Assembly (NCBI GenBank): GCA_030145085.1
Contig: JAQYWG010000001.1
Span: 1-60,553 of the forward strand
Length of the DNA: 60,553 nt
Direction of reading: 5' to 3'
Source of the DNA: Thermodesulfobacteriota bacterium
GTDB taxonomy: Bacteria > Desulfobacterota > BSN033 > WVXP01 > G020346125
Of this stretch, positions 5,645 through 46,189 are shown piece by piece. The notes under the pieces were generated by a model. It did no database searches and was not told the DNA's origin. It worked only from the letters and a program-made list of their open reading frames with translations. The position numbers and the translations under genes are program-made. Position 1 is the first letter of the stretch, and every line of letters begins with the position of its first letter.

Positions 5645-5650
5645 TCTAGT

Positions 5651-26173: not shown

Positions 26174-26220
26174 TTGACAAACGTGCGTTATTTGACAATA
26201 ATTAATTATTCCGGTAAATT
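26174..26220 (+). promoter_or_regulatory. Two overlapping sigma-70-like promoter candidates upstream of the exeA-like operon
   Basis: TTGACA(26174)-N17-AATAAT(26197) and TTGACA(26192)-N17-TAAATT(26215). Confidence 0.35.
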
Positions 26221-26232
26221 GAGAGATGATAG

Positions 26233-27057
26233 ATGAATTACTACGAGATATTAGGACTTGAAAGGGAGCCCTTCTCCAGTTCACCTGACCCCGCTTTTTT
26301 CTACCTTTCAGATGATTACCGTGAATGTCTCCAGAGATTAGAGATCTCAATTCGGTTAAAAAGAGGGCTGAATATCATCTTGGGCGAGGTTGGGACCGGC
26401 AAGACAACCCTTTCCAGGGTTTTGTACCGAATGTTTCAAAGGGAAAGCCGGGATTTTATTTTTCACTTCATCCTCGATCCCAGTTTTCCCACGGAATTCC
26501 AATTCTTCAGCAGCCTGGTTGCATTGTTCGACATCACGCCATCTGGACGTTCAACCTTTGAGTACAAGGAGGCTATCCAAAATTACCTCTTCCAAAAAGG
26601 GGTTGATGAGAAAAAGACCATAGTGTTGCTCATTGACGAAGGTCAGAAATTGTCCAAACCCCATCTGGAGATCTTGAGAAATCTCCTCAATTATGAAACC
26701 AATGAGTACAAACTGCTCCAGCTCCTCATTTTTGCCCAGATGGAGTTTTCTGATCGAGTAAAGGGGGTAGAGAATTTTCTGGACAGGGTGAATCTGAAAT
26801 ATGTATTTCTCCCGTTAAATGAGATAAATACGAGGAAAATGATAGAATTTAGGTTAAGAGTTGCAGGCCTCAACAGTGGAAGGTCGTTATTCACGGACGA
26901 CGCCTATATGGCAATTTATATGGAAACCCTAGGCTATCCGAGAAAGATTATTAACCTCTGCCATCACGCCCTCCTCACCATGTTGATAAGGGAAAAGGAG
27001 ATTATTGACGGAGAAATAATCCGGATAACGGCAAAAGCGAGAGGGGATCAAATTTGA
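26233..27057 (+). CDS. ExeA/GspA/MshM-like AAA+ ATPase
   Basis: YYEILGLEREPFSSSPDPAFFYLSDDY...GLNIILGEVGTGKTTLSRVL (Walker A), LLIDEGQ (Walker B). First gene of the second pilus operon. Confidence 0.8.
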   Translation: MNYYEILGLEREPFSSSPDPAFFYLSDDYRECLQRLEISIRLKRGLNIILGEVGTGKTTLSRVLYRMFQRESRDFIFHFILDPSFPTEFQFFSSLVALFDITPSGRSTFEYKEAIQNYLFQKGVDEKKTIVLLIDEGQKLSKPHLEILRNLLNYETNEYKLLQLLIFAQMEFSDRVKGVENFLDRVNLKYVFLPLNEINTRKMIEFRLRVAGLNSGRSLFTDDAYMAIYMETLGYPRKIINLCHHALLTMLIREKEIIDGEIIRITAKARGDQI

Positions 27058-28250
27058 GCGAAAAGGACAAGGACATCGCTGCGACCAATCGGTTGCTGGA
27101 GGTGATTCGAGGCAAGGGTGATATAGAATCATCCCCCGTGGATCGCGAACCTCCCCGACAGGAGGGAGTAAAACCCGAGGGGCCGCCAATACGTGAAAAG
27201 AAAAAGGCCCCAAGTTCCTTCTCCCTCTTTTCGAGCAAGACAGTGGGACTGGATATCGGATCTCATTCGGTAAAATGCGTCCAACTGGAAAAAAAGGGGA
27301 CGGCGGCTTATCGATTGCTTTCGGTCGGGGTTCTCGAGATTGCGCCGGAGGGAATCAATCTCGAGGAGGATCCGAGAAAGGCGATCATATCCGCCATCAG
27401 GAAATCCATCGAAGGAATAAACCTTAAAAGGACGCCGATTACCACCGCCATTGGCGGGGTATCCACCGCTATCAGGCAGATTGAACTCCCCTTTATGACT
27501 GAAAAGGAGCTGGCCTCGGCCATAAAATGGGAGGCGCGAAATTACATTCCCTTCGATATCAACGATGTAGAATTGGATTACCAAATTATCAATACATCCA
27601 AGGCCAGCAATAAATTGGATATTATCCTTGTCTCCATCATCAAGGACTTCGTACGATACCACCTCGATCTACTCAGGGAGGTCCCCATCGATCCCCAAAT
27701 CATCGATGTCAATCCATTGGCCCTGGTGAATGCTGTGCTGTTCAACGAGGAAATAGAGAAAGATGAATACGTCGTGCTGATGGACATCGGGGATAAGAAT
27801 ACCACCTTGAGCGTCTATAGTGAGGAGGGTCAGTATTTCGTACGGAATATTATGATATCCGGCAATGATTTTACCGATGACATTATGAGGGGAATGGGAC
27901 TTTCCTACGCAGATGCCGAAAAGTTCAAGAGAAACGAGGACTCCGTTGGCTTGATTGAGACCATCAAACCATCCTTGGACAACCTGGTCAGGGAAGTTCG
28001 AAGGTCCTTGACCTTTTATGAGAATCAGGTCAAAATAAAGGGGTTTAGCAAAATCTTCCTCACGGGGGGAAGTGCGCCCCTCAAGGGTTTGGATGATTAT
28101 TTGAGCACTGAACTTGGGCTGCCCGTAACGATACTCAACCCCTTTTCGGAAATCAATGTGGAAAAGGCCTCTCTGCTATCCCCATTTGGGAACGACCTGT
28201 GCACATTAGCCTTGGCCGTTGGCCTGGCGATAAGGGGGGTAAATGGGTGA
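27054..28250 (+). CDS. pilM: PilM/MshI-like pilus assembly ATPase-fold protein with N-terminal extension of about 65 aa
   Basis: VGLDIGSHSVKCVQLEKK...AIKWEARNYIPFDINDVELDYQII. TTG start overlaps the exeA-like stop, so the true start is uncertain. Confidence 0.85.
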   Translation: MSEKDKDIAATNRLLEVIRGKGDIESSPVDREPPRQEGVKPEGPPIREKKKAPSSFSLFSSKTVGLDIGSHSVKCVQLEKKGTAAYRLLSVGVLEIAPEGINLEEDPRKAIISAIRKSIEGINLKRTPITTAIGGVSTAIRQIELPFMTEKELASAIKWEARNYIPFDINDVELDYQIINTSKASNKLDIILVSIIKDFVRYHLDLLREVPIDPQIIDVNPLALVNAVLFNEEIEKDEYVVLMDIGDKNTTLSVYSEEGQYFVRNIMISGNDFTDDIMRGMGLSYADAEKFKRNEDSVGLIETIKPSLDNLVREVRRSLTFYENQVKIKGFSKIFLTGGSAPLKGLDDYLSTELGLPVTILNPFSEINVEKASLLSPFGNDLCTLALAVGLAIRGVNG

Positions 28251-28897
28251 AATTTCAGATCAATATATATAAACCGGGGAGAAAGCCGAAAAAGGTCCCC
28301 AAGCTAACGGGAGAGGAGAGACGGGTATCCGTAGCGATGCTTGTCGTCCTGATGATCATTCTACTCGGGGTAATCTACTTGGCCTATATGAATTGGATTT
28401 TCCCATCAATAAATAAAAAGATTAGGTGGAATAAAAACCAAACGCTCGTCCTAAGTAATCAGTTAAGCGAAGTGGAGAAGGATTTGGAGAAGCATTCCAA
28501 TGAGGCAGGGCTCCTTTCCAAACTCCACATTAAGAGGGTATTGTGGTCCCGCAAGTTGGTGGATCTCAGCAGGGTCACGCCCGATGATCTATGGCTAACC
28601 GATCTTTCAATCAAGACAATTGAAAAAAAGAAAAAGGCATCAAAACAGGTCGAGAAGGAGACGTATCTCACCATCAAGGGGGTTACCTTGCCCGTGCCAG
28701 GTCGGGTACCCCTCGACAGCATCGCCCAACTCATACTGGCATTGAATGGTTCGAAATCCTTTAGTCAGGACTTCGAGGCGGTCAAACTCGTCTACACCCA
28801 CCTTACCAGGGAGAAAGACCGCGATATTATGGAATTTGAGCTCTCGAGCAAGTTGAGCGGCAGCTCTCCGCTCAGGAAAGAAAAGGCGTCGAGATGA
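28247..28897 (+). CDS. PilN-like fimbrial assembly protein
   Basis: GTG at 28247 overlaps the pilM2 stop (GTGA). It has one TM segment (VSVAMLVVLMIILLGVIYLAYM), a coiled coil, and a C-terminal pattern LWLTDLSI...LTIKGVT. The ORF-track start at 28199 lies inside pilM2. Confidence 0.65.
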   Translation: MKFQINIYKPGRKPKKVPKLTGEERRVSVAMLVVLMIILLGVIYLAYMNWIFPSINKKIRWNKNQTLVLSNQLSEVEKDLEKHSNEAGLLSKLHIKRVLWSRKLVDLSRVTPDDLWLTDLSIKTIEKKKKASKQVEKETYLTIKGVTLPVPGRVPLDSIAQLILALNGSKSFSQDFEAVKLVYTHLTREKDRDIMEFELSSKLSGSSPLRKEKASR

Positions 28898-29802
28898 AAT
28901 CTTCCATTTCCACAAGAAACATGATAATAGCCCTGGTGATCTTTTTCTTCGGGGTGTCATCCCTCTTCTACTTCTTCGACTATCGCCGATATTTGAACAA
29001 GGCGAAAAAGGGGATGAAGACGATATCCCTCCTCAACGGGAGGGTTGAAAAGGCCGTTCGGGAGGTCAATGAACTCCAGGAGAGGATCGAGCGATTCAAC
29101 AAAGAGGAGGTGAACGTCGACTTCTTCAAGCGGCACCAAATCCCCCCGGAGAGGCGGACACCTACCTTTCTCGAAAAAATAAATGACTTGGTCAATCGAC
29201 TGGGGATCAAAACCATTATGGTGAAACCCATGCCCCAAGAGGAATCCCCCGATTATATTCGGTATCCCTTTTTGGTCGAAACGAGATCCAAATACGAGGA
29301 AATCGCCAAATTCATCGATAGCCTCGAGAACAGTTTTAAACTCAACTTAGACGACCTTCACATTGAGAATGATCCCAAGGCCCCCCTCTGGCATCGCCTC
29401 AAATTCACCGTTAGTACCTTCGAATTGAAAAGCGCCGAATCCTCACCTTCTGATGAAACGGGGAAGGTGGAGGCCGCCCCCATCCAAATGGTGGTAAAGG
29501 ACGATATCACGGTGAGGAGGGATCCCTTCCTGGAGAAGGAGGTGCCGAAGGGGGAGAAGAAGGTTACAACCGTGTCCCTCCCCAAGAGACGGCGAAAGAG
29601 GCGACCTCCTTTAAAACTCAAGGGCATCATCGATATCGCGGGAAAGAAGGTGGCCATCATGAACGACAAGATCGTTAGGGAAGGGGATTGGATCGCGAGA
29701 CACCGCATCGTCCGGATTGGCGAGGATGAGGTTATAGCGGTCTCCGGAGGGAAAAAACGCACCCTCAAGATAGAAGAGTTGGTCAAAACCAAATTGAGGT
29801 AA
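28894..29802 (+). CDS. PilO-like / PilP-like fusion protein
   Basis: TM segment, coiled coil and PilO-type core (YPFLVETRSKYEEIAKFIDSLENSFKLNLDDLHI). Then a linker with RRDPF and a PilP/GspC-type beta domain (LKLKGIIDIAGKKVAIMNDKIVREGDWI...RIVRIGEDEVIAV). Confidence 0.6.
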   Translation: MKSSISTRNMIIALVIFFFGVSSLFYFFDYRRYLNKAKKGMKTISLLNGRVEKAVREVNELQERIERFNKEEVNVDFFKRHQIPPERRTPTFLEKINDLVNRLGIKTIMVKPMPQEESPDYIRYPFLVETRSKYEEIAKFIDSLENSFKLNLDDLHIENDPKAPLWHRLKFTVSTFELKSAESSPSDETGKVEAAPIQMVVKDDITVRRDPFLEKEVPKGEKKVTTVSLPKRRRKRRPPLKLKGIIDIAGKKVAIMNDKIVREGDWIARHRIVRIGEDEVIAVSGGKKRTLKIEELVKTKLR

Positions 29803-29808
29803 GCAGCT

Positions 29809-31212
29809 ATGAAAAGGATTTCTTTTCCCATTACCCTATGTCTGATTTTTCTCCTCGCCCTCGCGTCCACGGGATTGGGCCAGTCTCCCCAGGTCAAAAA
29901 TCCCCTGGAAAGTGACCTGCCTTTCTCCTTGAAGGTAAGAGATGTTGATATTCGGGATGTTCTGACCATAATCGCCGAAGAGTATGGTTTGAACCTCATC
30001 CTTTCGCCGGCGGTTTCGGGAAGAATCACCTATGATATCGAGAACACCACACTGAGAGATGGGTTTAACGCCATACTCAGGAGCAGCGGCTTAACTTACA
30101 TTATTGAGGGGAATATCATCCGGGTGGACGAACAGGCGGAATTGCGTAAGAAGCTGAAAACCGAGCTGGATATCTATAAGGCGCGCCAAGAGCTGAGAGA
30201 AGCGGCGAAACTGGAGAAGCCGTTGGAGACGACCTATGTCGACCTCAACTATATCGGAACGACCCTCTCCAAGGAGAAGGGGACGGAGACCACCGATTTG
30301 CAGGATGCCATGGAGAAGTTGTTGAGCCACAACAAGGAGAAAGGGGTTGATAGAGGGGCCAACGTCAGCATCATCAAGAAAACCAATACCTTGGTCATTA
30401 CCGACGTTGAGGAAAATGTTCGCGAAATTGCGGCGATGGCCAAAAAATTGGATCTGCCAACGGAACAGGTAAGGATTGATGCGAGGATTGTGGAGACAAG
30501 TCGCGATTTCTCCCAGGAATTGGGCATTAAATGGGGCGGAACGGCACAAACCCGGGTGGGCAGTACGCGGGATAGGAAGGGTAACCTTACCTTCGATGGG
30601 TCTGCGGGTGGGGATATCGTGAATCTACCCGTGATAAATCCCGCGGGCGTCTTTAGCCTGGGCTGGCTCTCGTCGACTGCGGTTCTCCGAAACCTGGATG
30701 TTGAGCTCTCGGCCCTTGAGGCGACGGGCGACGTGAAGATCGTCTCCAAGCCCTCAATCCTCGTCGTCGAAAGTCAGGAGGCGGAGATATTTGTTGGAGA
30801 GAAAGTTCCCGTTGCGGAGGGGTATGATGCCGAGACGGCCCAAGTCAGTATTCGGCTGGAAGACGTGGGTACGAAGTTGAGGATCACCCCTCAAATCACC
30901 CGGGATGGCTCAATTTTTATGCTGGTGGGGGTGGAAACGAGTGAAATTTCAGGTGAAACCGTAATTCAGGGACAACCTTACGACACTCTCGGAACGAAGA
31001 GGGCAGCCACACAGGTCTTGGTAAAGGACGGACAAACCGTGGTCATTGGAGGTCTTTTGAGCACCCGCAAAGAGGAAAATCGAGACCGCGTCCCCTTTCT
31101 GTCCAGGGTTCCCATTGTGGGCCTTCTCTTCAAGAGCAAGGAGGATATCTCGGAGTATCGGGAGCTGATGATATTCATTACGCCCCAAATCGCCACTCAG
31201 GTGGGGGGGTGA
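29809..31212 (+). CDS. Short secretin (PilQ/MshL/GspD family) without AMIN domains
   Basis: Signal peptide. N0 (LKVRDVDIRDVLTIIAEEYGLNLIL). Secretin core (VRIDARIVETS...VPFLSRVPIVGLLFK). 467 aa. Confidence 0.9.
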   Translation: MKRISFPITLCLIFLLALASTGLGQSPQVKNPLESDLPFSLKVRDVDIRDVLTIIAEEYGLNLILSPAVSGRITYDIENTTLRDGFNAILRSSGLTYIIEGNIIRVDEQAELRKKLKTELDIYKARQELREAAKLEKPLETTYVDLNYIGTTLSKEKGTETTDLQDAMEKLLSHNKEKGVDRGANVSIIKKTNTLVITDVEENVREIAAMAKKLDLPTEQVRIDARIVETSRDFSQELGIKWGGTAQTRVGSTRDRKGNLTFDGSAGGDIVNLPVINPAGVFSLGWLSSTAVLRNLDVELSALEATGDVKIVSKPSILVVESQEAEIFVGEKVPVAEGYDAETAQVSIRLEDVGTKLRITPQITRDGSIFMLVGVETSEISGETVIQGQPYDTLGTKRAATQVLVKDGQTVVIGGLLSTRKEENRDRVPFLSRVPIVGLLFKSKEDISEYRELMIFITPQIATQVGG

Positions 31213-31246
31213 GGAGGGAAACCCCGAAATGAAGGCATACTGAACA

Positions 31247-32989
31247 ATGGCCCATCCCAAAAGCTACACGTTGAGTTACAAATCTCTCGGCGCGCTGTTG
31301 GTCGATAACAAGGTGTTCACCCAGGAACAGCTTGACAAGGCCCTCGATCGACAGAGAAAGAAGGGGGGGCTTTTAGGGGATATCATAATCGAAATGGGCC
31401 TCGCCTCTGAGGGTCAGGTCCTCGGGGCCCTTGCGCAACAGCTCAGCATCCCACACCTAACCCCCGACGAAGTTGTCTTTATCGATCCCGAGGTCATTAG
31501 GCTCGTTCCCGAGCGCATTGCGCGACAGTCCATGGCAATACCCGTTTCCATACGGGACAATACCTTGACCGTGGCCATGGTGAACCCCTTCGATATCATC
31601 GCCATCGATGACCTCCGGACTATTACCAATTATAAGATCAATACGGCCATTATATCCAAATCGGGATTGGAAGCCCTCATCAATCGATTCTATGGGGTCA
31701 GTGAGCGGGAATCTAGCCTGGAGGATGTCTTAAAGGATGTATCGGAGACCCACCTTGAGCTCAAAAAGGAATTCGACGATGATCGCGAGGTTAACCTGGA
31801 GAGGCTCCGGGAGCAGGTGGAAGAGGCCCCCATTGTCAAATTGGTGGATTACATCATATCGAACGCCATCAACGAGCGGGCGAGCGATATCCACATCGAG
31901 CCCCAGGAGACACGGTTGAGCATTCGCTACCGGATTGACGGGGTACTCCACGATATCATTTCTCCGGCAAAGGCACTCCAGATGGCCATCGGTTCTCGAA
32001 TCAAGATTATGTCCAACATGGATATCGCCGAAAGACGCCTTCCTCAGGATGGCCGTTTTACCATAAAGCAGGGGTTTCGGGAGGTTGACCTGAGGGTATC
32101 CACGTTGCCCACCATCTTCGGCGAAAAGGTGGTAATGAGGCTCCTGGAGAAGGGGTCCCTTTCCCTGGACATAGACAGCCTGGGATTCGGCGACGGCCAA
32201 TTGGAAATTTTTCGGAGCTACATATCAAAACCCCACGGGATGGTTCTCCTCACGGGACCAACGGGAAGCGGAAAGACGACCACCCTCTATTCGGCCCTGA
32301 CGGAGATTAAATCCTCTCAGACCAATATCGTTACGGTGGAGGATCCCGTGGAGTATCAGATCAAGGGGATCTACCAGGTTCAGGCCAATCCCAAAATCGG
32401 CCTCACCTTTGCCAACGGTTTACGGTACATTCTTCGCCAGGATCCGGATATCATCATGGTGGGCGAGATCCGGGACTTGGAGACGGCCGAGATGGCCATT
32501 CGGTCCGCCCTTACCGGGCATCTCGTATTCAGCACCCTGCATACCAATGACGCCGTGGGAACCATTGTCCGACTGATCAACATGGGTGTGGAGCCATATC
32601 TCGTCTGCTCTTCTCTGAGTTTGGCCGTCGCCCAGCGCCTGGTGCGAAAGATCTGCCCTCACTGCAAGGAGTCATACAAGCCAACCAAGGAGGTGCTGCG
32701 GAGCCTCGGAGTCGATGAAAAGCCTCAAAAGAACTTTCTCTTTCACCAGGGCAAGGGGTGCCATAGATGCAAGGGCACGGGCTATTACGGTAGGACGGCT
32801 ATCTGCGAAATTTTGGAGATGAAGGCTCCAGTTCGAAACGCCATCCTCAACGGGGCCGATATCGAGGGAATGAGGCAGGTGGCCCTTGAGCTGGGGATGA
32901 CCACCCTCAGGAAAGGCGGCTTGCAGAGGGTGCGAGATGGGATTACAACTCCGGAAGAGGTTTTCAGGGCGACCATCGAGGAAGATTAA
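31247..32989 (+). CDS. pilB: Type IV pilus extension ATPase (PilB/MshE/GspE family) with MshEN-like N-terminus
   Basis: T2SSE_N region. Walker A GPTGSGKTTT. Asp box VEDPVEY. Walker B IMVGEIRD. His box. Tetracysteine CPHC...CHRC. Confidence 0.94.
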   Translation: MAHPKSYTLSYKSLGALLVDNKVFTQEQLDKALDRQRKKGGLLGDIIIEMGLASEGQVLGALAQQLSIPHLTPDEVVFIDPEVIRLVPERIARQSMAIPVSIRDNTLTVAMVNPFDIIAIDDLRTITNYKINTAIISKSGLEALINRFYGVSERESSLEDVLKDVSETHLELKKEFDDDREVNLERLREQVEEAPIVKLVDYIISNAINERASDIHIEPQETRLSIRYRIDGVLHDIISPAKALQMAIGSRIKIMSNMDIAERRLPQDGRFTIKQGFREVDLRVSTLPTIFGEKVVMRLLEKGSLSLDIDSLGFGDGQLEIFRSYISKPHGMVLLTGPTGSGKTTTLYSALTEIKSSQTNIVTVEDPVEYQIKGIYQVQANPKIGLTFANGLRYILRQDPDIIMVGEIRDLETAEMAIRSALTGHLVFSTLHTNDAVGTIVRLINMGVEPYLVCSSLSLAVAQRLVRKICPHCKESYKPTKEVLRSLGVDEKPQKNFLFHQGKGCHRCKGTGYYGRTAICEILEMKAPVRNAILNGADIEGMRQVALELGMTTLRKGGLQRVRDGITTPEEVFRATIEED

Positions 32990-32998
32990 GGGACCCAG

Positions 32999-34234
32999 AT
33001 GCCACTGTATTCTTATACGGCCAAGAGGGGAGACGGAAGAAACCTAAGGGGTGACCTGGAGGCAATCAGCGAGCTGGAGGTAATAGAGACATTACACCGG
33101 CGGAACCTCACCGTCCTCGACATCGCGGAGAAGAAAAGTGCCCGGGAAAAGGACCTCGTGGGCCGGTTCTCAATGAGTGATCCCCTCTTCGGAGGGGGGG
33201 TTAAACACGATGAGATTTTCCTCTTTGCGAGTCAAATGTCGGCCATGGTTGAAGCCGGGCTGCCCTTGCTTCGATGTCTGACGAGCTTCGGCAATGAGGT
33301 TGAGAACCCGCGGTTCAAGAGGGTGATGGATTCCGTGAGCATTGATGTCGAGGAGGGAAGTACCTTTTTCGATGCCCTGTCCAAGCATCCTAAGGTATTC
33401 AGCAAACTCTTCGTCAACATGGTCAAGGCCGGCGAAGTCAGCGGACGGTTGGATCAAACCCTTGCTCAACTGGCCAGTTATCTGGAGAGTACCGCAAACC
33501 TTCGGAGGAAGGTGAAGGCAGCCGTCACATACCCCCTTTTTCTCATCGGATTTACCATCTTCGCCATCATCCTCCTGGTAGCCAAGGTGGTCCCTGTATT
33601 CCAAAAGATTTATACAGGGGCGAGGGTACGCCTTCCGGTCCCCACTCGGATATTGATAGGCAGCAGTGTCGCTATTCGTGACTACTATTGGCTTATCCTG
33701 TTGATCGCCGCAGGAATCGGGATTCTCATTTATGCCGGGCTTCAAACCGAAAGGGGTCGGCTTTTCTGGGATAAGCATAAGCTCCGGATTCCCATCTTAG
33801 GACCATTGATGCGGAAATATTCCCTGACCAAATTTACCAGGACACTGGGGGTTTTGCTCAATAGTGGAGTTCCCATCTTGGGTTCCCTTGATCTGGTTGC
33901 GGAGACCGCTGGCAATAGGATGTTGGAAAGGGCCATTCTTGGAAGCTCAGCGTCCATTGAGCAGGGCAGTGGGTTTGCCGAAGCCCTCGCTGAAAGGAGA
34001 GATGTATTTCCGGAGATGGTGGTTCAGATGTCCGCCACGGGTGAGGAATCGGGGACGTTGGACAACATGGTGAGCAAAGTGGCAAATTTCTACGAGAAAC
34101 AGATAGAGGCGAGCATCACCACCGTGACGTCTCTCATCGAGCCTATCCTCGTCATCTTCATCGGAACGGTGGTGGGAGGAATTTTGCTCTCCATCTTCCT
34201 CCCCATATTCAAGATGGGGCGGGCAATTCACTGA
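32999..34234 (+). CDS. pilC: Type IV pilus platform protein PilC/GspF
   Basis: 411 aa with two T2SSF repeats (MVEAGLPLLRCL, LLNSGVPILGSL) and three TM segments. Confidence 0.94.
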   Translation: MPLYSYTAKRGDGRNLRGDLEAISELEVIETLHRRNLTVLDIAEKKSAREKDLVGRFSMSDPLFGGGVKHDEIFLFASQMSAMVEAGLPLLRCLTSFGNEVENPRFKRVMDSVSIDVEEGSTFFDALSKHPKVFSKLFVNMVKAGEVSGRLDQTLAQLASYLESTANLRRKVKAAVTYPLFLIGFTIFAIILLVAKVVPVFQKIYTGARVRLPVPTRILIGSSVAIRDYYWLILLIAAGIGILIYAGLQTERGRLFWDKHKLRIPILGPLMRKYSLTKFTRTLGVLLNSGVPILGSLDLVAETAGNRMLERAILGSSASIEQGSGFAEALAERRDVFPEMVVQMSATGEESGTLDNMVSKVANFYEKQIEASITTVTSLIEPILVIFIGTVVGGILLSIFLPIFKMGRAIH

Positions 34235-35729
34235 TGTGGGGACTTCCCGTCCCCGTAATGGATAGTTCGATTCTGAAGATCACCCCTTTCCTTTTCCCCT
34301 CCATCTCGTTCATTACCCTAATACGGCCTCCATGAGCGGTGACGATCTGTTGGGCAATGCTCAAACCGAGTCCGATGCCTCCGGGCTTGGTGGTGAAGAA
34401 AGGATTGAATACCCGTTCGCTGTCCTCGACGGATATGGGGTCTCCCGTATTGAAGACGTCGATCATAACGCGCTGCTGCGTCGACGGACCGGACCGATGA
34501 GGACCGGTAGTATCTTGCCCCCTATCCAGGGACAGCTGCACGATATCCGTAGTAACCTGAACGGTTCCTCCTTCAGGGGTGGCCTCCAGTGCGTTGTTGA
34601 TGATATTGAGGATCGCCTGGGTCATCTTATCGCCCTCCACGGCGATCTCGGGGAGGTCCCCCCGGTAATGTTCCTTGACGATGATCTTTTTTTCGGGAAA
34701 CCCGGTTTTCGCCAGGGAGACCGTCTCCCGAACGATTTCCTCTATGTCCCGTTGTTCAAACGCGAAGGTTGAGGGTTGGGCAAAAGTCAGAAGCTCTTCC
34801 ACGACTTTATTCAACCTGTCGATCTCCTTGATGATTACCTCGACGTATTCCGCCCTTCCACCCCTCTCGATGATATCCTCTTGCAGGAGTTGGGCCAACC
34901 CCCTCAGAGACCCCAGAGGGCTCCGAATCTCATGGGCCAGCCCGGCCACAAGGCTACCCAACGAAGCGAGCCGATTGATTCTCTCGATTTCCCGTTGAAT
35001 CTCTTGAATCTCCCCCAGGTCACGGAAACTGGCCACCACCTCCACCAACTTTCCCTCGGCACCGCCCAATAAGGCCGTCCTGATTCTCATGGCCAACTTC
35101 TTTCCCTTATCGGTCATGACCGTCACATCTTCCACTGAGCTGGGCATTTCCTTCTCAATCCCAAGAAGTATCATATCCGTGAGCGCTTTGTTGGATTTAT
35201 GGATGGGGAAGAGATCCGTGAAGTGTCTTCCCACTACGTCCCGGGTATCATGATCAAATATGGTCTCAGCAGCAGGGTTGAAGGTCGCAATAATGCCATC
35301 GGAGTTGATGGTTACCACCGCACCGACAGAAGTCTCCAGGAGGTATCGATTCAATGAAGAGACCATTTGATTGTAGGCCTGAACCAGTTGGTTGATCTCC
35401 TCCTGGGGGAAGAGTTCCAAGCTTTGGCTGAGATCTCCTTGGGCGACGGATTGGACCCCTCTGGTTAGCTGTTTGATCGGTCTCTTGATGGCATAGGTGA
35501 GCACTACACCCGAGAGGCACGCCACGAATCCTCCGATCAAAACGTAAATTCGCATTTGTTGCGTTGCCGCCTTGACTTTGGCGATGGTTGGGGGGTTGTT
35601 GGGGGATCGGAGGAGCTCTCGTTCATTGATCTCAATGGCGAGGAATCCCGTAAAGAGGACCAGGAGTGTAGTGAACACCTGGATGGCGATGAAAATACGG
35701 ATTCCGACCAACCTCGACCGTATCTTCAT
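34209..35729 (-). CDS. TM-HAMP-PAS sensor histidine kinase (paralog A)
   Basis: Two TM segments with a short loop. HAMP (PIKQLTRGVQSVAQGDLSQSLE). PAS. H-box AGLAHEIRSPLGSL. HATPase (GIGLGLSIAQQIV). The 3' end overlaps the pilC 3' end by 26 nt. Confidence 0.88.
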   Translation of the reverse strand: MKIRSRLVGIRIFIAIQVFTTLLVLFTGFLAIEINERELLRSPNNPPTIAKVKAATQQMRIYVLIGGFVACLSGVVLTYAIKRPIKQLTRGVQSVAQGDLSQSLELFPQEEINQLVQAYNQMVSSLNRYLLETSVGAVVTINSDGIIATFNPAAETIFDHDTRDVVGRHFTDLFPIHKSNKALTDMILLGIEKEMPSSVEDVTVMTDKGKKLAMRIRTALLGGAEGKLVEVVASFRDLGEIQEIQREIERINRLASLGSLVAGLAHEIRSPLGSLRGLAQLLQEDIIERGGRAEYVEVIIKEIDRLNKVVEELLTFAQPSTFAFEQRDIEEIVRETVSLAKTGFPEKKIIVKEHYRGDLPEIAVEGDKMTQAILNIINNALEATPEGGTVQVTTDIVQLSLDRGQDTTGPHRSGPSTQQRVMIDVFNTGDPISVEDSERVFNPFFTTKPGGIGLGLSIAQQIVTAHGGRIRVMNEMEGKRKGVIFRIELSITGTGSPHISELPAPS

Positions 35730-38731: not shown

Positions 38732-38808
38732 GATTTTTCTTTTCTCTTTAAATCAAATTGTAGGCTCAAAATGTCACCGTGTCAAGAAACAAGGAGCTAT
38801 TGATATTG

Positions 38809-38837
38809 TTGCAAATATTTTGCCAAAATGCTAGAAT
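38809..38837 (+). promoter_or_regulatory. Sigma-70-like promoter TTGCAA-N17-TAGAAT for the divergent activator gene
   Basis: The -35 lies at 38809-38814 and the -10 at 38832-38837, about 38 nt upstream of ATG 38875. It physically overlaps the minus-strand sigma-54 element. Confidence 0.4.
38810..38825 (-). promoter_or_regulatory. Sigma-54 promoter TGGCAA-N5-TTGCA for the kinase/HD-GYP/kinase operon
   Basis: The minus strand reads ttTTGGCAAaatatTTGCAacaa with correct GG-N10-GC spacing, about 80 nt upstream of ATG 38731. Confidence 0.55.
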
Positions 38838-38874
38838 TATTTCAATTTTAACCTTTTGGTATGGGAACCAGTCC

Positions 38875-40269
38875 ATGGCTCAAGAGAGGATATTGGTCGT
38901 AGAGGACGATCCCAGTATGAGCTTCTTTCTCTCCGAGGCAATGCAAAAGGAGGGATATCGGGTGGATGCCATCGCCTCCGGGGAGGAGGCCCTGGAGAAG
39001 ATCGGGCAAGATCGGTTCAATTTGGTGATTTTGGACCTGAAACTCCCCTCAATGGATGGGATGGAGGTTCTGGCAAACATTAAGGTGACCAATCCGGAGA
39101 TGGCGGTGATCATGGTTACCGCACATGGCTCAAAGGATATCGCCATCGAGGCAATACGGAAAGGTGCCTACGATTACTTCACCAAGCCTTTGGATATCAA
39201 CGAGATGAGGGTAGTGGTTAAGCGGGCTCTGGAGAGGGAACACCTTCAGAATGAACTCAGACAACTGAGGGAGACGGTCGAAAAGAGGAGGGGGTTTTTC
39301 AATATTGTGGGAAACAGCAAGGAAATGAGGGAGGTCTTCGATATGGCGGAGACCGTCTTCGATAATGACATCACCGTCCTGATTACCGGGGAGAGCGGAG
39401 CGGGAAAGGAATTGATCGCGGAGGCCATTCATTACAATAGCCCACGGAGGGCAAAACCCTTTGTCAAACTAAACTGCGTAGCCATTCCGGAGACCCTTCT
39501 GGAAAGCGAGCTCTTCGGCTACGAGAAGGGGGCCTTCACCGGCGCAACCAGGCAGAAGCTGGGCAAATTTGAACTGGCCAACCAAGGGACCCTGTTGCTG
39601 GACGAAATCGGGGACATGAGCCTGGCAACCCAGGCCAAGCTATTGAGGGTGCTGCAGGAGAGGGAAGTGGAAAGGGTAGGGGGGGTTAAGCCCATTAAGG
39701 TCGATGTCCGGATTATCGCCTCCAGCAATCAAGATCTGGCTCAACTGGTCATGGAAAAACGCTTCCGGGAAGACCTCTATTTCCGGCTCAACGTTCTTCC
39801 CATCCACATTCCTCCCCTGAGGGAGCGTGTGGAAGATATTCCCCTTTTGGTGGATCATTTCGTGAGCTTATCCAAGACAAGGTTTCACAAGGATATCGAG
39901 GGGTTTTCTGAAGATGCCATGGATTTCTTGATCACCTATTCCTGGCCTGGAAACGTGAGGGAGCTGGAAAATATCGTGCAGAGGGCTATTATTTTGGCCA
40001 AGGAACCGGTCATCCAGGAATGGGACCTGCCCCCGGAGATACGCGGGCAGACGAAAAAATCTCACTTCGACGTGGAGAAGCTTGAAACGGATATCCCATT
40101 AAACGAAAAGGTGGAGATGATCATAGCCGAGGTCGAAAAAAAGCTCATTATTCAGGCATTGGATAAGGTTGGTTGGAAAAGGGAAGAGGCGGCCTCTCTC
40201 CTTGGGACAAGCCTCAAGACCCTCTATAACAAGATGAAGAAATACGGGCTTTTTGATCAATCCTCCTGA
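38875..40269 (+). CDS. Sigma-54-dependent response regulator, PilR-like by position upstream of the pilin gene
   Basis: MAQERILVVEDD start (the ORF-track extension from 38779 lacks homology-like content). REC (LVILDLKLPSMDGM). GESGAGKE. GAFTGA loop ELFGYEKGAFTGA. C-terminal HTH. Confidence 0.92.
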   Translation: MAQERILVVEDDPSMSFFLSEAMQKEGYRVDAIASGEEALEKIGQDRFNLVILDLKLPSMDGMEVLANIKVTNPEMAVIMVTAHGSKDIAIEAIRKGAYDYFTKPLDINEMRVVVKRALEREHLQNELRQLRETVEKRRGFFNIVGNSKEMREVFDMAETVFDNDITVLITGESGAGKELIAEAIHYNSPRRAKPFVKLNCVAIPETLLESELFGYEKGAFTGATRQKLGKFELANQGTLLLDEIGDMSLATQAKLLRVLQEREVERVGGVKPIKVDVRIIASSNQDLAQLVMEKRFREDLYFRLNVLPIHIPPLRERVEDIPLLVDHFVSLSKTRFHKDIEGFSEDAMDFLITYSWPGNVRELENIVQRAIILAKEPVIQEWDLPPEIRGQTKKSHFDVEKLETDIPLNEKVEMIIAEVEKKLIIQALDKVGWKREEAASLLGTSLKTLYNKMKKYGLFDQSS

Positions 40270-40513: not shown

Positions 40514-40975
40514 ATGAAAAAGAGAAGGATCTTAAATCACAGAGGTTTTACCCTGGTGGAATTGATGGTGGTCATCATCATCGTCGGTATTCTGGCCGCT
40601 ATCGCTGTTCCCCTGTATACGGGATACGTCGAAAGGGCAAGGGTAACCGAGGCAACCAGTATCATGGGGGCCATCATTACCTCTCAAAAGGTGGAGATGC
40701 AGAGGACGACCAACTTTTACAATGCAGCGGATATCGCTACTTTTAGGAACAAAGGAATTGATATAAGCGATACGAAGTTTTTCACCTATGTAACATCCAT
40801 GGATGTGCCAGTAGCCGGGGGCTTTCAGGCCGTCGCCACCTCTACAGCCGATTTCGGTCAAGCAGGGGGGACCATAACTTACCAGTATAACCCAACAGTC
40901 TCTCCTCCTGGAAGCTGGGCGGCCGACGGGTCAATCATACTGGACGACATGTTGCCCACTGAGCCGAGCGGCTAA
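40514..40975 (+). CDS. pilA: Type IV pilin (type IVa-like, no cysteines)
   Basis: Leader [11 protein letters not shown], then the cleavage and methylation motif [37 protein letters not shown] with Glu at +5. Confidence 0.92.
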
Positions 40976-41003
40976 TGCAAACATTACTCCAGTAAACTTC
41001 CGT

Positions 41004-41034
41004 GAGAAGGGAGGTGGTTCTTCCCTTCTCTTTT
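41004..41034 (+). terminator. Strong hairpin plus short T-run after pilA (terminator or attenuator)
   Basis: GAGAAGGGA-(9 nt loop)-TCCCTTCTC followed by TTTT, 29 nt after the pilA stop. Confidence 0.6.
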
Positions 41035-41055
41035 CCCGATATCGGTCCCATCTGA

Positions 41056-41565
41056 ATGAGAAATTCTGCTTCAAATTCCATTGGTAAGCTCTCCTTTCTC
41101 AGAAATGGTTTGAAGGATGTAAAAGGGCTTTCCCTCCTTGAGACCCTCATAGCCATCATCATTTTGGCCATCACCCTCACCTCCATCAGCTATTTCTTCT
41201 CAACGGCCAGGGGCAATATCGAAACCTTCGGCCACATGAGATGTGGCCTTGTCTTGGCCCAGGATAAGATGGAACAGTTGAAGGACCTGGGCTACTTCCA
41301 CGACGATTTGAGCGGAGGTTTTAGTGGAGAAACACACTCGGACCGTGTAGACAGTGCTGGGGATCCAGATGCGGACGACAGGCCATTTTACCGGGAGTGG
41401 ACCGTTTATGATATAGATAACCCCGCCGATGGCACAGGCCCAGACGAGGTGGACTACAAGCGCGTCGAGTTGGCGGTCTACGACCAACGGCTGAACCCCG
41501 GAAATGTAACCTTAAATGATATAAATAAATTGGTGGCTGAACTGAGGACCTACATCTCCCCGTAG
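41056..41565 (+). CDS. Minor pilin / pseudopilin with prepilin-type N-terminus
   Basis: KG/LSLLETLIAIIILAITLTSISYFF (Glu at +5). The leader from ATG 41056 is unusually long at 24 aa, so the start is uncertain. Confidence 0.65.
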   Translation: MRNSASNSIGKLSFLRNGLKDVKGLSLLETLIAIIILAITLTSISYFFSTARGNIETFGHMRCGLVLAQDKMEQLKDLGYFHDDLSGGFSGETHSDRVDSAGDPDADDRPFYREWTVYDIDNPADGTGPDEVDYKRVELAVYDQRLNPGNVTLNDINKLVAELRTYISP

Positions 41566-41578
41566 AGAAAGCCACACC

Positions 41579-42148
41579 ATGAACAAAAATATGAGGAGTC
41601 GCCCTATGATCTTTCGGAAGAACGACCAACGGGGAAGCGTGCTCATCGAGCTGGTCGTCGCCGCCATCATCTTCGCCGTCGTCGTGGCGGCCATTGCCTT
41701 CTATTTCATCTATCACGTCGGAACCATAGATAACGGACGGGCGCAACTGAAGTTGCAGAGGGTCGGAAGCCTCCTCATGGAGGAAATGGCCGGGGCCATT
41801 CGAGAGGGGAAGACCACCGATCTAGTGGCGGGAAGCATTCCGCCTCCTACTCAGCTTATGATCACTTACCCGGATGCTAGCACGCAGTGTTTCAGCCTTG
41901 ATGATGTTAATAAAGACATCAACTGGGGGGATAATTACGATACCCTCACCCCCATGGAAGTCCTGGATGACAGCCACACCGTGGGGAGTGTAAACCGTAC
42001 CCACCGGATCCTCTGCGATGAGCTGCGGTTTACGAAGGATGGAGATCGCGTGATTATTCGGTTTGAGCTCCGACACGATCTGGATAACGGCGATGGGCCT
42101 GACGATCTGGAAATCAAATTTGGCTCAACGGTGAAATTGAGGGGATGA
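41579..42148 (+). CDS. Minor pilin / pseudopilin with prepilin-type N-terminus
   Basis: RG/SVLIELVVAAIIFAVVVAAIAFYF (Glu at +5). Several in-frame ATG starts are possible. Confidence 0.65.
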   Translation: MNKNMRSRPMIFRKNDQRGSVLIELVVAAIIFAVVVAAIAFYFIYHVGTIDNGRAQLKLQRVGSLLMEEMAGAIREGKTTDLVAGSIPPPTQLMITYPDASTQCFSLDDVNKDINWGDNYDTLTPMEVLDDSHTVGSVNRTHRILCDELRFTKDGDRVIIRFELRHDLDNGDGPDDLEIKFGSTVKLRG

Positions 42149-42173
42149 CATACCGCCTGCCGGGCCACGAGGT

Positions 42174-44597
42174 ATGAGAATGAGGGCGAAGGGAATTGGG
42201 GCAAAAGGGAAGGGCGGCGCGGCCTTGGTGACCGCCATCATATTCGTCTTCTTCCTTACGCTTTTCGGATTGGCCTTTTACAGGCTCGGGGAGACGGATA
42301 TCGATCTGTTCGGGTACGATACGAACCTGTCAAAAGCCCTCTATGCCTCGGAGGCCGGCTTTGATAAGGTACGATGGATGATCAGGGAAAGTCACCAGAT
42401 CCCCGGGATGAATCCTTTTAGCAACGACTACGATGCCGCTGCCGAGGCCAACGCCATTTCCATCGCCAACCCCACGGAAGGGGATTTCTTTCCCGGCGTG
42501 GCGGATGAACCTTACTTCAGGGTTTCCATGATACAGGATGCCTCCAAACTAGAGCCAACGGAACCTAAGAGCAAAGTGAGGGTTCGAGTCCTGGGGTCGG
42601 TGGATGTGGACGGTGATGGAGAAGCCGGACTGACGGTGACCGAAGACGTTTTTACCTTCGATCCCGGCGACGTGAATCGAAGATTTGAGGCATATGTCGG
42701 CCTTCCGGGGACCCTGGGCGAGAGGGTTGGAGGGAAGGGTATTTCGGCAGCAGCTAGTGCGTTCTTTGCCAGCGGGGTGGAGGTTCCCCTTTCCTCGCAG
42801 CCCAGACAATTTGTGACCCCGGATGGGGATTCTATGACCGGTTTTCTCTACAGAGGGGGACCGACTGACTTCGGAATCTGGGATAAATGGGATTTCATCT
42901 TCTCGGACCCGGTTGTAACGGGCGAAGTTGAACTGCCCCGCGGAATCTTCGATACGGATGGGGATTACATCGATGATGATAACGACACAATACCGGACTA
43001 CTTTCAGGATTTGAACCTGAGAACTTATGCGGGCGATCAAACCTTCACCTCTTCCAATGACCCGACGGAAGGTGATTCCGGTCGGAGCGTTATCTACGTC
43101 AATGGAGATATCACCATCACCGGGGTTGATTTCGGGCACCTGAATGACCAGGGGGACATTAGGAACTGCGACTGGGAAGGGTATCCTCCTGAGAAGTTTG
43201 ACCTTACATTCATCGCCAATGGCGATATTACTGTGGACCGAATCGACTGCGGAAATGTGGGGAGATTGGTCCTGGTGGCCCAAAACATTTTTCTAGTGGG
43301 GAATTACGATACCAAGGTCAACGGCATTGCTATTGCCTTCAATGACATTACCCTGAATGGGCAGTATTGTGACGACGGAATCCTGACCCATCAAACCGAT
43401 TTCTCGCGGCCAGTCAGGTACACGGCCTACTTCCTGGGCAGCATGGTGGCCGGAAACCACATCGTGCTCCAGGACGACGGCTGGACCGTCATCTACGACG
43501 AGAATGTCATCAACGGCTACATGTACAGCACAACCGTTTCAAAACCCACCCTTACCTACGAGAGGGCCGAGGCAGAGGATTTTGACTCCTCCAACAACTG
43601 GCAACTGAATGAGTCAACCCCGGAATTGGCCTACACTCAGGGCATATACACCCAGGATGAGATCGACACCACGCAAGGGAATTATGCCGATGGCGGGGAG
43701 GATGAGCTCCCCGAGCTCATGAGGGTTTACACGGACCGTGACAACTGGCAGCCCAAGAACTATCCGGCAATAGGGGAAAACCTCAGGCTCGATTTTACCA
43801 CCGGTGACTTTGAAGACCCGCATATCCCGGATTCTAGCCCGCAGAATTGGGACTACTATGATACCATCACCTTCTGGATGGCGCTGGACAATTTCAAGAG
43901 GACCAGTACCGACCTCACCAAGACCACTCGCCGTGAGGCCCATTATGAAATCACATTGAGAGACTCCGGTGGGAACACAATCCCCGTCCTGTTGGATACC
44001 CTCTATCCTGATTCTGAGTGGGGAACCGTCCGATACCACCATACAGGAGAGGAGTATGCCAACGAAATCCGTGATCTGACGGATGGCGAAAAGGCCGGCG
44101 GGGAGGCTTACAGTTCCTGGAAAAGGATTAAGATCACCCCACAGAATATTGACCCTGGCATACCCTTCGATTTCAGCAGTGTGGAGCAGTTCAGTATCAA
44201 ATATCTAGATCTGGAGCTTAGTTGGACAGTTACAGGGGGCACCCGTGAGGTAAAATGGTGGGGAACATACTTCAGGTATATCTATGAGGATGGGATTAAT
44301 TGGGAGAGTATCGACGGCAAGGACAATCAGGGAAATCTCAACAACGATCCTCCAGATTCTAATGATGGTTACTACTACCTTTACAGTTATGATTCTGGTA
44401 CCGGGATATACACGTGGTTTAGGTGGATTGAAGACCCCGATTCATCCACGGAAATAAGGATGAGGGAAGAAGTGCTCATGCCGACCCTCCGGATTGACCG
44501 ACTCGAGCTTCCGGGAAAACCCGCCAGTAACAGCTACCTCGAATATGGCCTCCCTCACTCCCTGCGGCTCGAGGTTACCAACTGGCGCGAGCTGTAA
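42174..44597 (+). CDS. Large (807 aa) PilX_N-type pilus-associated protein, candidate tip or adhesin component
   Basis: N-terminus GGAALVTAIIFVFFLTLFGLAFY...ALYASEAGFD matches the PilX N-terminal pattern. Asp-rich stretches (DVDGDGEAG, DTDGDYIDDDNDTIPDY). Last gene of the pilin operon. Confidence 0.65.
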   Translation: MRMRAKGIGAKGKGGAALVTAIIFVFFLTLFGLAFYRLGETDIDLFGYDTNLSKALYASEAGFDKVRWMIRESHQIPGMNPFSNDYDAAAEANAISIANPTEGDFFPGVADEPYFRVSMIQDASKLEPTEPKSKVRVRVLGSVDVDGDGEAGLTVTEDVFTFDPGDVNRRFEAYVGLPGTLGERVGGKGISAAASAFFASGVEVPLSSQPRQFVTPDGDSMTGFLYRGGPTDFGIWDKWDFIFSDPVVTGEVELPRGIFDTDGDYIDDDNDTIPDYFQDLNLRTYAGDQTFTSSNDPTEGDSGRSVIYVNGDITITGVDFGHLNDQGDIRNCDWEGYPPEKFDLTFIANGDITVDRIDCGNVGRLVLVAQNIFLVGNYDTKVNGIAIAFNDITLNGQYCDDGILTHQTDFSRPVRYTAYFLGSMVAGNHIVLQDDGWTVIYDENVINGYMYSTTVSKPTLTYERAEAEDFDSSNNWQLNESTPELAYTQGIYTQDEIDTTQGNYADGGEDELPELMRVYTDRDNWQPKNYPAIGENLRLDFTTGDFEDPHIPDSSPQNWDYYDTITFWMALDNFKRTSTDLTKTTRREAHYEITLRDSGGNTIPVLLDTLYPDSEWGTVRYHHTGEEYANEIRDLTDGEKAGGEAYSSWKRIKITPQNIDPGIPFDFSSVEQFSIKYLDLELSWTVTGGTREVKWWGTYFRYIYEDGINWESIDGKDNQGNLNNDPPDSNDGYYYLYSYDSGTGIYTWFRWIEDPDSSTEIRMREEVLMPTLRIDRLELPGKPASNSYLEYGLPHSLRLEVTNWREL

Positions 44598-45754: not shown

Positions 45755-46189
45755 ATGAAAAAGGCCTTGAATCCCCAAAAGGGTTTTACCCTGGTGGAGT
45801 TGGTGGTGGTCATCATCATCGTAGGCATTCTAGCCAGCATTGCCGTTCCCCTGTATCTCAATTACAGCGAGACGTGTAAGGTACGAGAGGCATTGGGCAT
45901 GATCAAGGCAATCAAAACCTCACAAAAGGTTGAGCAAATGAGAACGTTGAATTTCTTCACAGCCACTGGGGATACGGCTTCAACGATTTTCCTGAAAAAG
46001 GGGGTGGACGTAAGGGAGTCCCTCTATTTTACCTACGAAACGGCAGGTGATGCCGACACGTTTACTGTCACGGCCACTGCAACTGCTGAATCGGGAATCA
46101 CGGGAACCGTCTCCTATGATAGCGCCACCAATAGCTGGTCATCTGTCGGGGATATTACGGAAAGCATGTTGCCCGAGCCATCGGAATGA
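45755..46189 (+). CDS. Type IV pilin paralog (no cysteines)
   Basis: [34 protein letters not shown]. It aligns with PilA 40514-40975 over its full length, including the C-terminal MLPEPSE versus MLPTEPSG. I saw no Shine-Dalgarno or sigma-54 promoter upstream. Confidence 0.88.
   Translation: MKKALNPQKGFTLVELVVVIIIVGILASIAVPLYLNYSETCKVREALGMIKAIKTSQKVEQMRTLNFFTATGDTASTIFLKKGVDVRESLYFTYETAGDADTFTVTATATAESGITGTVSYDSATNSWSSVGDITESMLPEPSE

Follow-up and report, generated by a model that had tools for sequence, protein, structure and literature searches.

Few parts of type IV filament machines are as poorly understood as the ATPases of the ExeA/GspA/MshM family, whose mechanism is known in outline only, from the type II secretion systems (T2SS) of Aeromonas and Vibrio. 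The GspA (ExeA) protein is normally partnered by GspB (ExeB), whose HR domain binds the N0 domain of the T2SS secretin, and GspA/GspB occur in varied archetypes, including AAA-only forms of GspA (PMC9239104). A related protein, MshM, is mandatory in the TXSScan model of the mannose-sensitive haemagglutinin (MSH) class of pili (PMC6668835). In Pseudomonas aeruginosa the ExeA-like protein PA5037 (PA14_66580) is encoded just upstream of pilMNOPQ; its loss cuts piliation and twitching, and the mutant has normal PilQ multimers and fewer pili (PMC6321873). The type IVa pili (T4aP) are paraphyletic, with MSH and T2SS derived from them (Denise et al. 2019). In this paper we analyse a stretch of 60,553 nt (contig JAQYWG010000001.1, our C111, here called the window) from a 3.14-Mb, 480-contig metagenome-assembled genome (MAG) of a sulfate-reducer-like Thermodesulfobacteriota bacterium, in which an ExeA-like gene heads an operon of pilus-machine genes. 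We propose, with a probability of about 0.68, that this operon provides the assembly machinery for a third, self-contained type IV filament system of the genome, which belongs to a T4aP-like lineage, named XA below, and carries a redistributed module of the GspA/GspB type.

The operon consists of seven plus strand open reading frames at 26233-34234 of the window, exactly the coordinates of the initial annotation:

26174..26202, plus strand: sigma-70-like promoter TTGACA-17-AATAAT, 31 nt 5' of the exeA-like start, 11/12 matches, a consensus match only
26233-27057, plus strand: exeA-like gene, 274 aa; Pfam AAA_22 at 1e-16, best NCBIfam match the ExeA-like family TIGR03015
27054-28250, plus strand: pilM, 398 aa; TIGR01175 at 211 bits (cut-off 133)
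28247-28897, plus strand: pilN-like gene, 216 aa, GTG start; Pfam PilN at 21.7 bits, 2.2e-4 (cut-off 22.8)
28894-29802, plus strand: pilO fusion, 302 aa; PilO at 33.6 bits, 5e-8 (cut-off 22), with an added C-terminal domain
29809-31212, plus strand: short secretin gene, 467 aa; N0/STN, one N1 and the secretin domain, without AMIN
31247-32989, plus strand: pilB, 580 aa; T2SSE at 4e-142 and MshEN at 8e-18
32999-34234, plus strand: pilC, 411 aa; two T2SSF domains, 8e-60

Pfam and NCBIfam confirm the gene order that had been read from the sequence (exeA-like, pilM, pilN, pilO fusion, secretin, pilB, pilC), and with it the view that an ExeA/MshM-family AAA+ gene leads otherwise T4aP-like parts. The TTGA (within ATTTGA), GTGA and ATGA overlaps described for the junctions from exeA to pilO are present, and the remaining gaps, after pilO, the secretin gene and pilB, are indeed short (6, 34 and 9 nt respectively). 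The TTG start of pilM, which overlaps the exeA stop, is backed by orthologue lengths and by the conserved PilM N-terminus that it encodes; the GTG start of pilN at 28247 is preceded by a GGGGGG Shine-Dalgarno sequence and backed by orthologues of 216-217 aa, within a range of 214-218 aa. The PilN-like protein is bitopic with one transmembrane (TM) helix at 24-55, so its topology and position fit PilN despite a score just under the cut-off. Separate PilM, PilN and PilO alignment proteins are thus present, as in T4aP. Neither a separate PilP nor PilT is encoded within the seven-gene cluster, PilT homologues being found on other contigs, and a search for a sigma-54 site before the operon found none. 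The arrangement is beyond chance: 12 other genomes have their seven genes in this order too (L001-L008, L092, L093, L096, L101, L103).

The taxonomic distribution of the ExeA-like gene is wide. Close relatives (56-99% identity) are found in at least 80 species-level genomes, which include a few Thermodesulfobacteriota whose seven genes are ordered exactly as in the window (L001-L008), very many Omnitrophota, and also Nitrospirota and KSB1. In the latter three phyla the order is pilB-pilC...pilM-like...exeA-X-secretin. In all four phyla the ExeA subfamily of the window invariably goes with pilus-like clusters. Within our sample of 301 genomes of the phylum, ExeA-family proteins are almost ubiquitous, being found in 227 (E 1e-20), and orthologues with at least 41% identity occur in 22, from at least 11 families. 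In all 12 loci that were fetched for these orthologues exeA sits among pilus-machine genes, so ExeA-like genes are routine in this group. The 12 loci show one of two orders, either that of the window (lineage XA) or secretin-exeA-pilB-pilC with a long PilM-like gene upstream (lineage XB). The XB order is the MSH gene order, except that L098 has an additional gene separating exeA from the secretin gene. The architecture is old, and at least 11 families of the phylum have kept it. A third ExeA-linked lineage, XC, was seen in the same phylum (L202, L208, L229, L217); in XC the secretin groups as sister to MshL (100/99), but ATPase and platform each make up a clade of their own, and three genomes (G024, G077, G175) carry XA and XC together.

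The 274-aa ExeA-like protein corresponds to the cytoplasmic AAA+ module of the ExeA/GspA family only. Walker A (GEVGTGKTT) and Walker B (LLIDEGQ) motifs are both present; a topology check found no TM helix, no peptidoglycan-binding domain was found either, and the TIGR03015 score of 142 bits is well under the cut-off of 324.5. Longer orthologues in XA and XB (L094, L096, L101) bear a TM helix and a LysM domain. A sequence search of the PDB returned ORC1-type AAA+ proteins only (E ~0.004) and no informative structure. A plasmid search returned mainly paralogues linked to exopolysaccharide (EPS)/PEP-CTERM loci or transposons, at ~30% identity or less, which served as outgroups for a quick tree of the ExeA family. 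In this tree the XA, XB and Omnitrophota proteins form one clade on a long stem (support 100), apart from MshM (support 96), Aeromonas ExeA, and the T2SS-linked and PEP-CTERM/EPS-linked copies. The window protein is 29% identical to Aeromonas MshM versus ~60% to its Omnitrophota relatives, which makes it the best-kept component of the machine between these groups (PilB 46%, PilC 32%, secretin 27%). It therefore belongs to a subfamily of its own and is no MshM orthologue, since the MshM clade leaves it out. PA5037 beside pilMNOPQ (PMC6321873) shows that the premise of the initial annotation, by which classical T4aP lack ExeA-type companions, goes too far.

One of the clues to how this ATPase may be coupled to the machine lies in PilM. 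This actin-like protein has an N-terminal extension of ~60 aa, in which residues 10-20 form the conserved motif ATNRLLEVIRG (nt 27081-27113). The consensus [A/S]-T-x-[K/R]-L-L-x-[V/L]-I-R-G is found at residues ~10-20 of three carriers, namely the PilM extension in XA, the long PilM-like protein in XB and protein X in Omnitrophota. A regular-expression search finds it in 25 of the 34 loci with the ExeA subfamily of the window versus 1 of 82 other loci, and the protein that bears it is always encoded next to or near exeA. A similar amphipathic start peptide is seen in Aeromonas ExeB (MSTLLKALRR...), in MshN (MSVINQMLKDLD...) and in the partners of T2SS-linked ExeA genes, each of them encoded directly after its ExeA-family gene. 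We infer that the N-terminal peptide may recruit the ATPase. In the literature on ExeA/GspA with PilM, PilQ, Omnitrophota or Deltaproteobacteria we found no description of the motif or of the lineage. The PilM-like proteins of XB (L097, L099, L102) and of Omnitrophota/Nitrospirota (L024, L045, L061) are 475-744 aa long and are probably PilM-PilN fusions like MshI or GspL; the lineage of the window keeps PilM and PilN separate.

The other clue is the added domain of PilO. The protein is built from a TM helix, a coiled coil, the PilO core (residues 85-173), a disordered basic linker (176-233) and a beta domain of ~55 residues (240-292, nt ~29611-29769). The Pfam family T2SSB (GspB) is matched by nine of nine orthologue PilO C-termini, at best with 2.3e-5. 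An AlphaFold2 (AF2) model, with a confidence (pLDDT) of 70-85 per domain, was compared with known structures by Foldseek, which returned PilO first (3jc8_O, 2rjz), then Dickeya GspB 4wfw (root-mean-square deviation 2.2 over 56 columns) and also the PilP proteins of Myxococcus xanthus and P. aeruginosa (3jc8_P, 2lc4). A PDB profile search with the orthologue C-termini gave nothing significant (GspC 3oss, E 0.29), and pairwise BLAST against the PilP of the window itself gave a weak match (33% over 82 aa, E 0.09). From the Pfam matches and the fold comparison, the domain appears to be an HR domain of the GspB/PilP type with predicted secretin binding, so that the "pilO/P fusion" of the initial annotation is supported under this more exact name. 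In Omnitrophota, gene X between exeA and the secretin gene encodes a single-pass protein with the same T2SSC/T2SSB-type domain. In two XA members (L092/L093, 6798-8057) the PilO-like protein has 402 aa and a C-terminus that cannot be aligned to the HR domain and resembles another small domain; the PilO-HR fusion is therefore not universal in the lineage.

The secretin has an SPI-type signal peptide and lacks a lipobox, AMIN and N2/N3. It scores 294 bits against PilQ (TIGR02515, cut-off 284.35), 234.8 against GspD (cut-off 351.35) and 112.5 against MshL (TIGR02519, cut-off 250.2), and the XA and XB secretins pass the PilQ equivalog cut-off in every genome tested. Together with its place inside the PilQ clade (see below) this makes it a T4aP-type secretin, though it lacks the AMIN domain of the canonical PilQ in the window. 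PilB carries the MshE-type N-terminus that binds cyclic di-GMP (c-di-GMP), as had been predicted, with the motif at residues 14-65 (NF053729 at 56 bits, cut-off 38); it remains under both the PilB (TIGR02538, 644.1, cut-off 675.65) and the GspE cut-off (624.8, cut-off 630.25). PilC reaches 350.4 against the GspF model (cut-off 424).

For the phylogenetic analysis, careful trees were calculated with IQ-TREE under LG+C20. As references we took the Tap, MSH and Exe T2SS loci of an Aeromonas caviae chromosome, a set of 80 MSH loci (Gammaproteobacteria and others), every PilB-like ATPase found in 19 genomes, and canonical PilQ genes. The A. caviae record (NZ_AP026896.1, L081/L089-L091, 4.94 Mb), which came up in the plasmid search, is filed as 'plasmid pKAM479_3' and is evidently the chromosome; its tapB (pilB) is split by an insertion of ~1.2 kb. 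In the ATPase tree XA (100/100) is sister to XB (87/96), and MSH (100/100), T2SS (100/98), canonical T4aP (94/98) and Omnitrophota (100/100) form separate clades, of which the Omnitrophota ATPases are sister to T2SS (99/98). According to the approximately unbiased (AU) test the ATPase data are also compatible with a pairing of XA and T4aP (p 0.225). The platform tree places XA PilC as sister to canonical T4aP PilC (87/89) and XB PilC with MshG (96/91); here the AU test marginally disfavours XA+XB (p 0.043), a group that was chosen after seeing the trees. In the secretin tree XA, XB and canonical PilQ form one clade (100/99), with MshL, GspD and the Omnitrophota secretins outside. The MshE (from Aeromonas, Vibrionaceae, Shewanella and others), MshG and MshL clades are each monophyletic at 100/100 without the window proteins. 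The comparison of ATPase, platform and secretin with reference sets, as suggested in the initial annotation, thus puts none of the three in an MSH clade, and with the ExeA-like protein all four components tested against the MSH class are of another type. The T2SS equivalogs GspD, GspE, GspF and GspG are likewise all four below cut-off, and the GspD and GspF clades leave XA out. As these placements and AU tests show no convincing conflict, we conclude that the system is neither MSH nor T2SS and forms a branch allied to canonical T4aP. Such a branch fits the paraphyly of T4aP found by Denise et al. 2019. ExeA-like genes are routine in this lineage, as seen above, and the lineage itself is not among the established families.

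How the locus compares with the described systems can now be summarised. With the canonical T4aP of P. aeruginosa and M. xanthus it shares separate PilM, PilN and PilO, a PilQ-clade secretin of N0-N1-secretin layout, a PilC sister to theirs, a full-length prepilin behind a PilR/sigma-54-type switch and a large PilX/PilY1-like protein. It differs from them in the lack of AMIN, of a PilP lipoprotein (a putative HR domain being fused to PilO) and of PilT in the locus, in a PilB that falls under the equivalog cut-off and into its own clade, in the ExeA-family gene at its head and in the motif-bearing PilM extension. The likeness to GspA/GspB (ExeA/ExeB) of the Aeromonas and Vibrio T2SS concerns an AAA+ module from this family in which both Walker motifs are intact, the tight linkage to a secretin, a putative HR domain of the GspB/GspC/PilP type in the partner, a partner peptide that resembles the ExeB start, and a peptidoglycan-binding domain in orthologues. 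Unlike GspA/GspB, the XA module stands in a T4aP-like system, its ATPase has no TM helix or periplasmic domain and belongs to a separate clade (100 in the quick tree), orthologues use LysM and not PF01471, and the GspB pieces are split onto PilM and PilO. The MSH locus mshIJKLMNEGF of V. cholerae and Aeromonas is alike in its ExeA-family ATPase (MshM), its MshEN ATPase, its single locus and the lack of its own prepilin peptidase and PilT, but the four shared components lie outside the MSH clades, the secretin is of the PilQ type and not an MshL lipoprotein, PilM and PilN are unfused, an MshN tetratricopeptide repeat (TPR) protein is missing and exeA comes first. PA5037 resembles the XA protein as an ExeA-family protein beside a T4aP alignment/secretin operon, but it is encoded outside the pilM operon and its mutant still forms PilQ multimers.

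Downstream of the operon lie its cognate regulators and fibre genes:

34209-35729, minus strand: HAMP-PAS histidine kinase (Pfam)
35737-37284, minus strand: REC-GAF-HD-GYP response regulator (Pfam)
37241-38731, minus strand: second HAMP-PAS kinase (Pfam)
38779..40269, plus strand: PilR-like sigma-54 activator with REC, AAA+ and Fis HTH (Pfam), syntenic with pilins and machine in L095, L096, L101 and L103
40442..40456, plus strand: sigma-54-type promoter-like site TGGCAT-N5-TTGC before the major pilin gene, one mismatch
40514-40975, plus strand: major prepilin, 153 aa, N_methyl match
41056-41565, plus strand: prepilin-like minor subunit (N_methyl scan)
41579-42148, plus strand: 189-aa protein with a homologue upstream of exeA in L095 and L096
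42174-44597, plus strand: 807-aa PilX-N-type large, tip-like protein, a fibre gene
45755..46189, plus strand: second full-length pilin paralogue, 144 aa; relatives also have two tandem pilins

The pilin peptide quoted in the initial annotation lies within the 153-aa prepilin, which scores 40.8 bits against the GspG model (cut-off 88.85). Homologues of all four fibre genes (40514..44597) are found directly upstream of exeA in L095 and L096; L101 and L103 have the other three, with no tblastn match for the 189-aa protein. In these four loci the order is kinase, HD-GYP, PilR, pilin, pilin, minor subunit, (189-aa protein), large protein, and then the machine genes for ExeA, PilM, PilN, PilO, secretin, PilB and PilC. 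Both kinases and the HD-GYP regulator are co-oriented with the machine genes in one cluster in L096, L101 and L103. Since relatives from other families keep one co-oriented cluster, the regulators, pilins and machine of the window belong to the same system. The window contains six sigma-54-like sites versus 2.1 expected by chance, and the site at the pilin promoter alone is therefore weak evidence.

The same genome encodes further filament systems. A canonical pilMNOPQ with separate PilP and an AMIN-bearing PilQ of 897 aa lies in the window at 10431-15969, pilB-pilT-pilC is found on C333, and a T2SS with secretin, GspE, GspF and GspG-like pseudopilins on C3. Further pilins are on C199 and C200, and the one prepilin peptidase (PilD) homologue of the genome is on C199 beside other pilins. 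The seven-gene operon thus adds a third filament machine of the type IV kind to the canonical T4aP set and the T2SS. At 5222-6274, following a HAMP protein and a response regulator and a few kb upstream of the canonical pilMNOPQ, the window encodes a GTPase-activating protein of the MglB type (NF052242, 1e-20) together with a small Ras-like GTPase. By analogy with Myxococcus or Thermus, the pair suggests a module that gives the canonical pilus its polarity. Upstream of the operon, the minus strand encodes at 22559-24475 a TPR protein of 638 aa, which is conserved in this position in L002-L008, all close relatives. This protein may be a pilotin, an MshN-like factor or merely a syntenic neighbour; being syntenic in close relatives only, it was set aside as an MshN- or pilotin-like part of the operon.

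The HR domain on PilO and the motif on PilM, which in relatives are found on a GspB-like protein next to ExeA, lead us to propose a redistributed GspA/GspB secretin-assembly module. The interactions and the ATPase role in the following scheme are what we infer from the observed domain content, synteny and phylogeny. The free 274-aa cytoplasmic protein would be the AAA+ module of GspA, and both functional ends of GspB would have been grafted onto other proteins in XA. The N-terminal extension of PilM would carry the GspB/MshN-like peptide ATNRLLEVIRG, and the C-terminus of PilO would be the HR domain of GspB, contacting the N0 ring of the secretin in place of PilP. PilM, PilN and PilO form the inner-membrane alignment complex. 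The ATPase may dock on the PilM peptide at the cytoplasmic face and, via PilM-PilN-PilO-HR, promote, stabilise or check the assembly of the secretin and its anchoring over this complex, a route that would replace the AMIN/PilP solution of canonical T4aP. PilB and PilC make up the motor and platform and the short AMIN-less PilQ-type secretin the outer-membrane pore, through which the pilin would be polymerised. Extension may be gated by c-di-GMP via the MshEN domain of PilB; the two kinases and the neighbouring HD-GYP regulator would set pilin expression and, in part, the c-di-GMP level, with PilR and sigma-54 probably driving transcription of the pilin. A prepilin peptidase and, if there is one, a retraction ATPase would be borrowed from elsewhere in the genome and shared with the canonical T4aP.

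Two alternatives concern the class of the machine. An MSHA-type pilus, or a recent hybrid of MSH and T4aP clusters, would account for the ExeA/MshM-family ATPase, the single-locus machine without prepilin peptidase or PilT and the MshEN-type PilB. The sister lineage XB has the MSH gene order and a PilC sister to MshG (96/91), and the careful ATPase tree nominally joins MSH to XA+XB as sister group, with 49/50 support only. But we regard this reading as very unlikely, as the MshE, MshG, MshL and MshM clades all exclude the window proteins, the secretin groups with PilQ and scores less than half of the MshL cut-off, PilM and PilN show no MshI-like fusion, the operon has no MshN-like TPR gene and the secretin is not a lipoprotein. 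A recent hybrid is contradicted by an architecture that is kept across many families, and the AU results for the ATPase (XA+T4aP) and PilC (XA+XB) allow at most weak, ancient incongruence, so the recent-mosaic reading was dropped. From the "MSH/T4aP mosaic" of the initial annotation we therefore keep the ExeA-family gene, the T4aP-like remainder and the MshEN PilB, but not the hybrid origin. Equally improbable is a T2SS-like machine with a short pseudopilus that secretes proteins and forms no surface pilus. It could explain the GspA/GspB-like module, the lack of a retraction ATPase in the locus, the few minor-pilin-like genes and a PilB just under the GspE cut-off, and in a quick PilT-rooted ATPase tree, with MSH basal, the ExeA-linked ATPases grouped with GspE (support 83). 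This grouping was lost in the careful tree without the long outgroup, which no longer unites XA with T2SS. The genome, moreover, already has a T2SS with a GspG-like pseudopilin on C3, the pilin of the window is far below the GspG cut-off, PilM, PilN and PilO are separate in place of GspL and GspM, no GspC, GspL/GspM or GspK family was reported among the cluster proteins scanned, and the secretin, which has no N2/N3, falls into the PilQ clade. Full-length pilins behind a PilR/sigma-54-type switch and a large PilX/PilY1-like protein are typical of T4aP.

A third alternative leaves the class as it is and questions the role of the ATPase, which would not be a secretin-assembly factor but act on the cytoplasmic side only, for example by loading, remodelling or regulating the PilM ring or the recruitment of PilB. 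We hold this to be unlikely, though less so than the two readings above. The protein is purely cytoplasmic, the motif is on the cytoplasmic PilM, the ATPase is better conserved across phyla than PilB, PilC or the secretin, and the PA5037 mutant combines normal PilQ multimers with fewer pili. Against such a role, orthologues of the same clade bear a TM helix and LysM, its gene never occurs without linkage to a secretin and an HR-domain protein, and the conserved core in Omnitrophota is exeA, HR protein and secretin. By the PA5037 precedent, the ATPase may nevertheless serve stabilisation or cytoplasmic remodelling and not secretin multimerisation.

Several points weigh against the T4aP-like machine with a redistributed GspA/GspB module that we prefer. 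Since PA5037 is dispensable for PilQ multimerisation, the ATPase may have another role than secretin assembly, and as the window protein lacks a periplasmic or peptidoglycan-binding part, it is without the cell-wall link by which ExeA function is defined. Only co-occurrence and gene adjacency suggest that ExeA interacts with the PilM peptide, and 9 of the 34 loci of the ExeA subfamily have no match to the regular expression, some of them being truncated and some having variant motifs. For PilO, the T2SSB matches are below the Pfam gathering scores and the AF2 model, built on an 8-sequence alignment, reaches moderate quality only (mean pLDDT 62). Deeper nodes of the ATPase tree have support under 50, and the PilC AU result (p 0.043) makes some ancient exchange of components possible. 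The organism itself is represented by a MAG.

In our reading XA is an old, widespread and undescribed branch of type IVa-like pili. The classes T4aP, MSH and T2SS omit this coherent and common group, which automatic tools would mislabel or call 'generic'. The lineage, which many Thermodesulfobacteriota and a great many Omnitrophota carry, is also a natural dissection of the module, with the ATPase alone, the HR domain on PilO and the peptide on PilM, and this gives a directly testable hypothesis of how the ATPase is coupled to the machine. A more tentative idea, which we would sooner doubt than accept, is that the N-terminal peptide is a portable docking tag for ExeA-type AAA+ ATPases. The tag would then have moved between carriers, namely GspB in T2SS, MshN in MSH, the single-pass HR protein in Omnitrophota and PilM in XA. 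If this were true, all ExeA/GspA/MshM ATPases would share one mechanism, a cytoplasmic action on a membrane-spanning secretin scaffold, and XA would be the link by which the GspAB module is seen as ancestral and general to type IV filament machines, and not as an accessory of T2SS and MSH. The related machine may also play a part in the attachment of Omnitrophota, which are uncultured and often tiny and dependent on a host.

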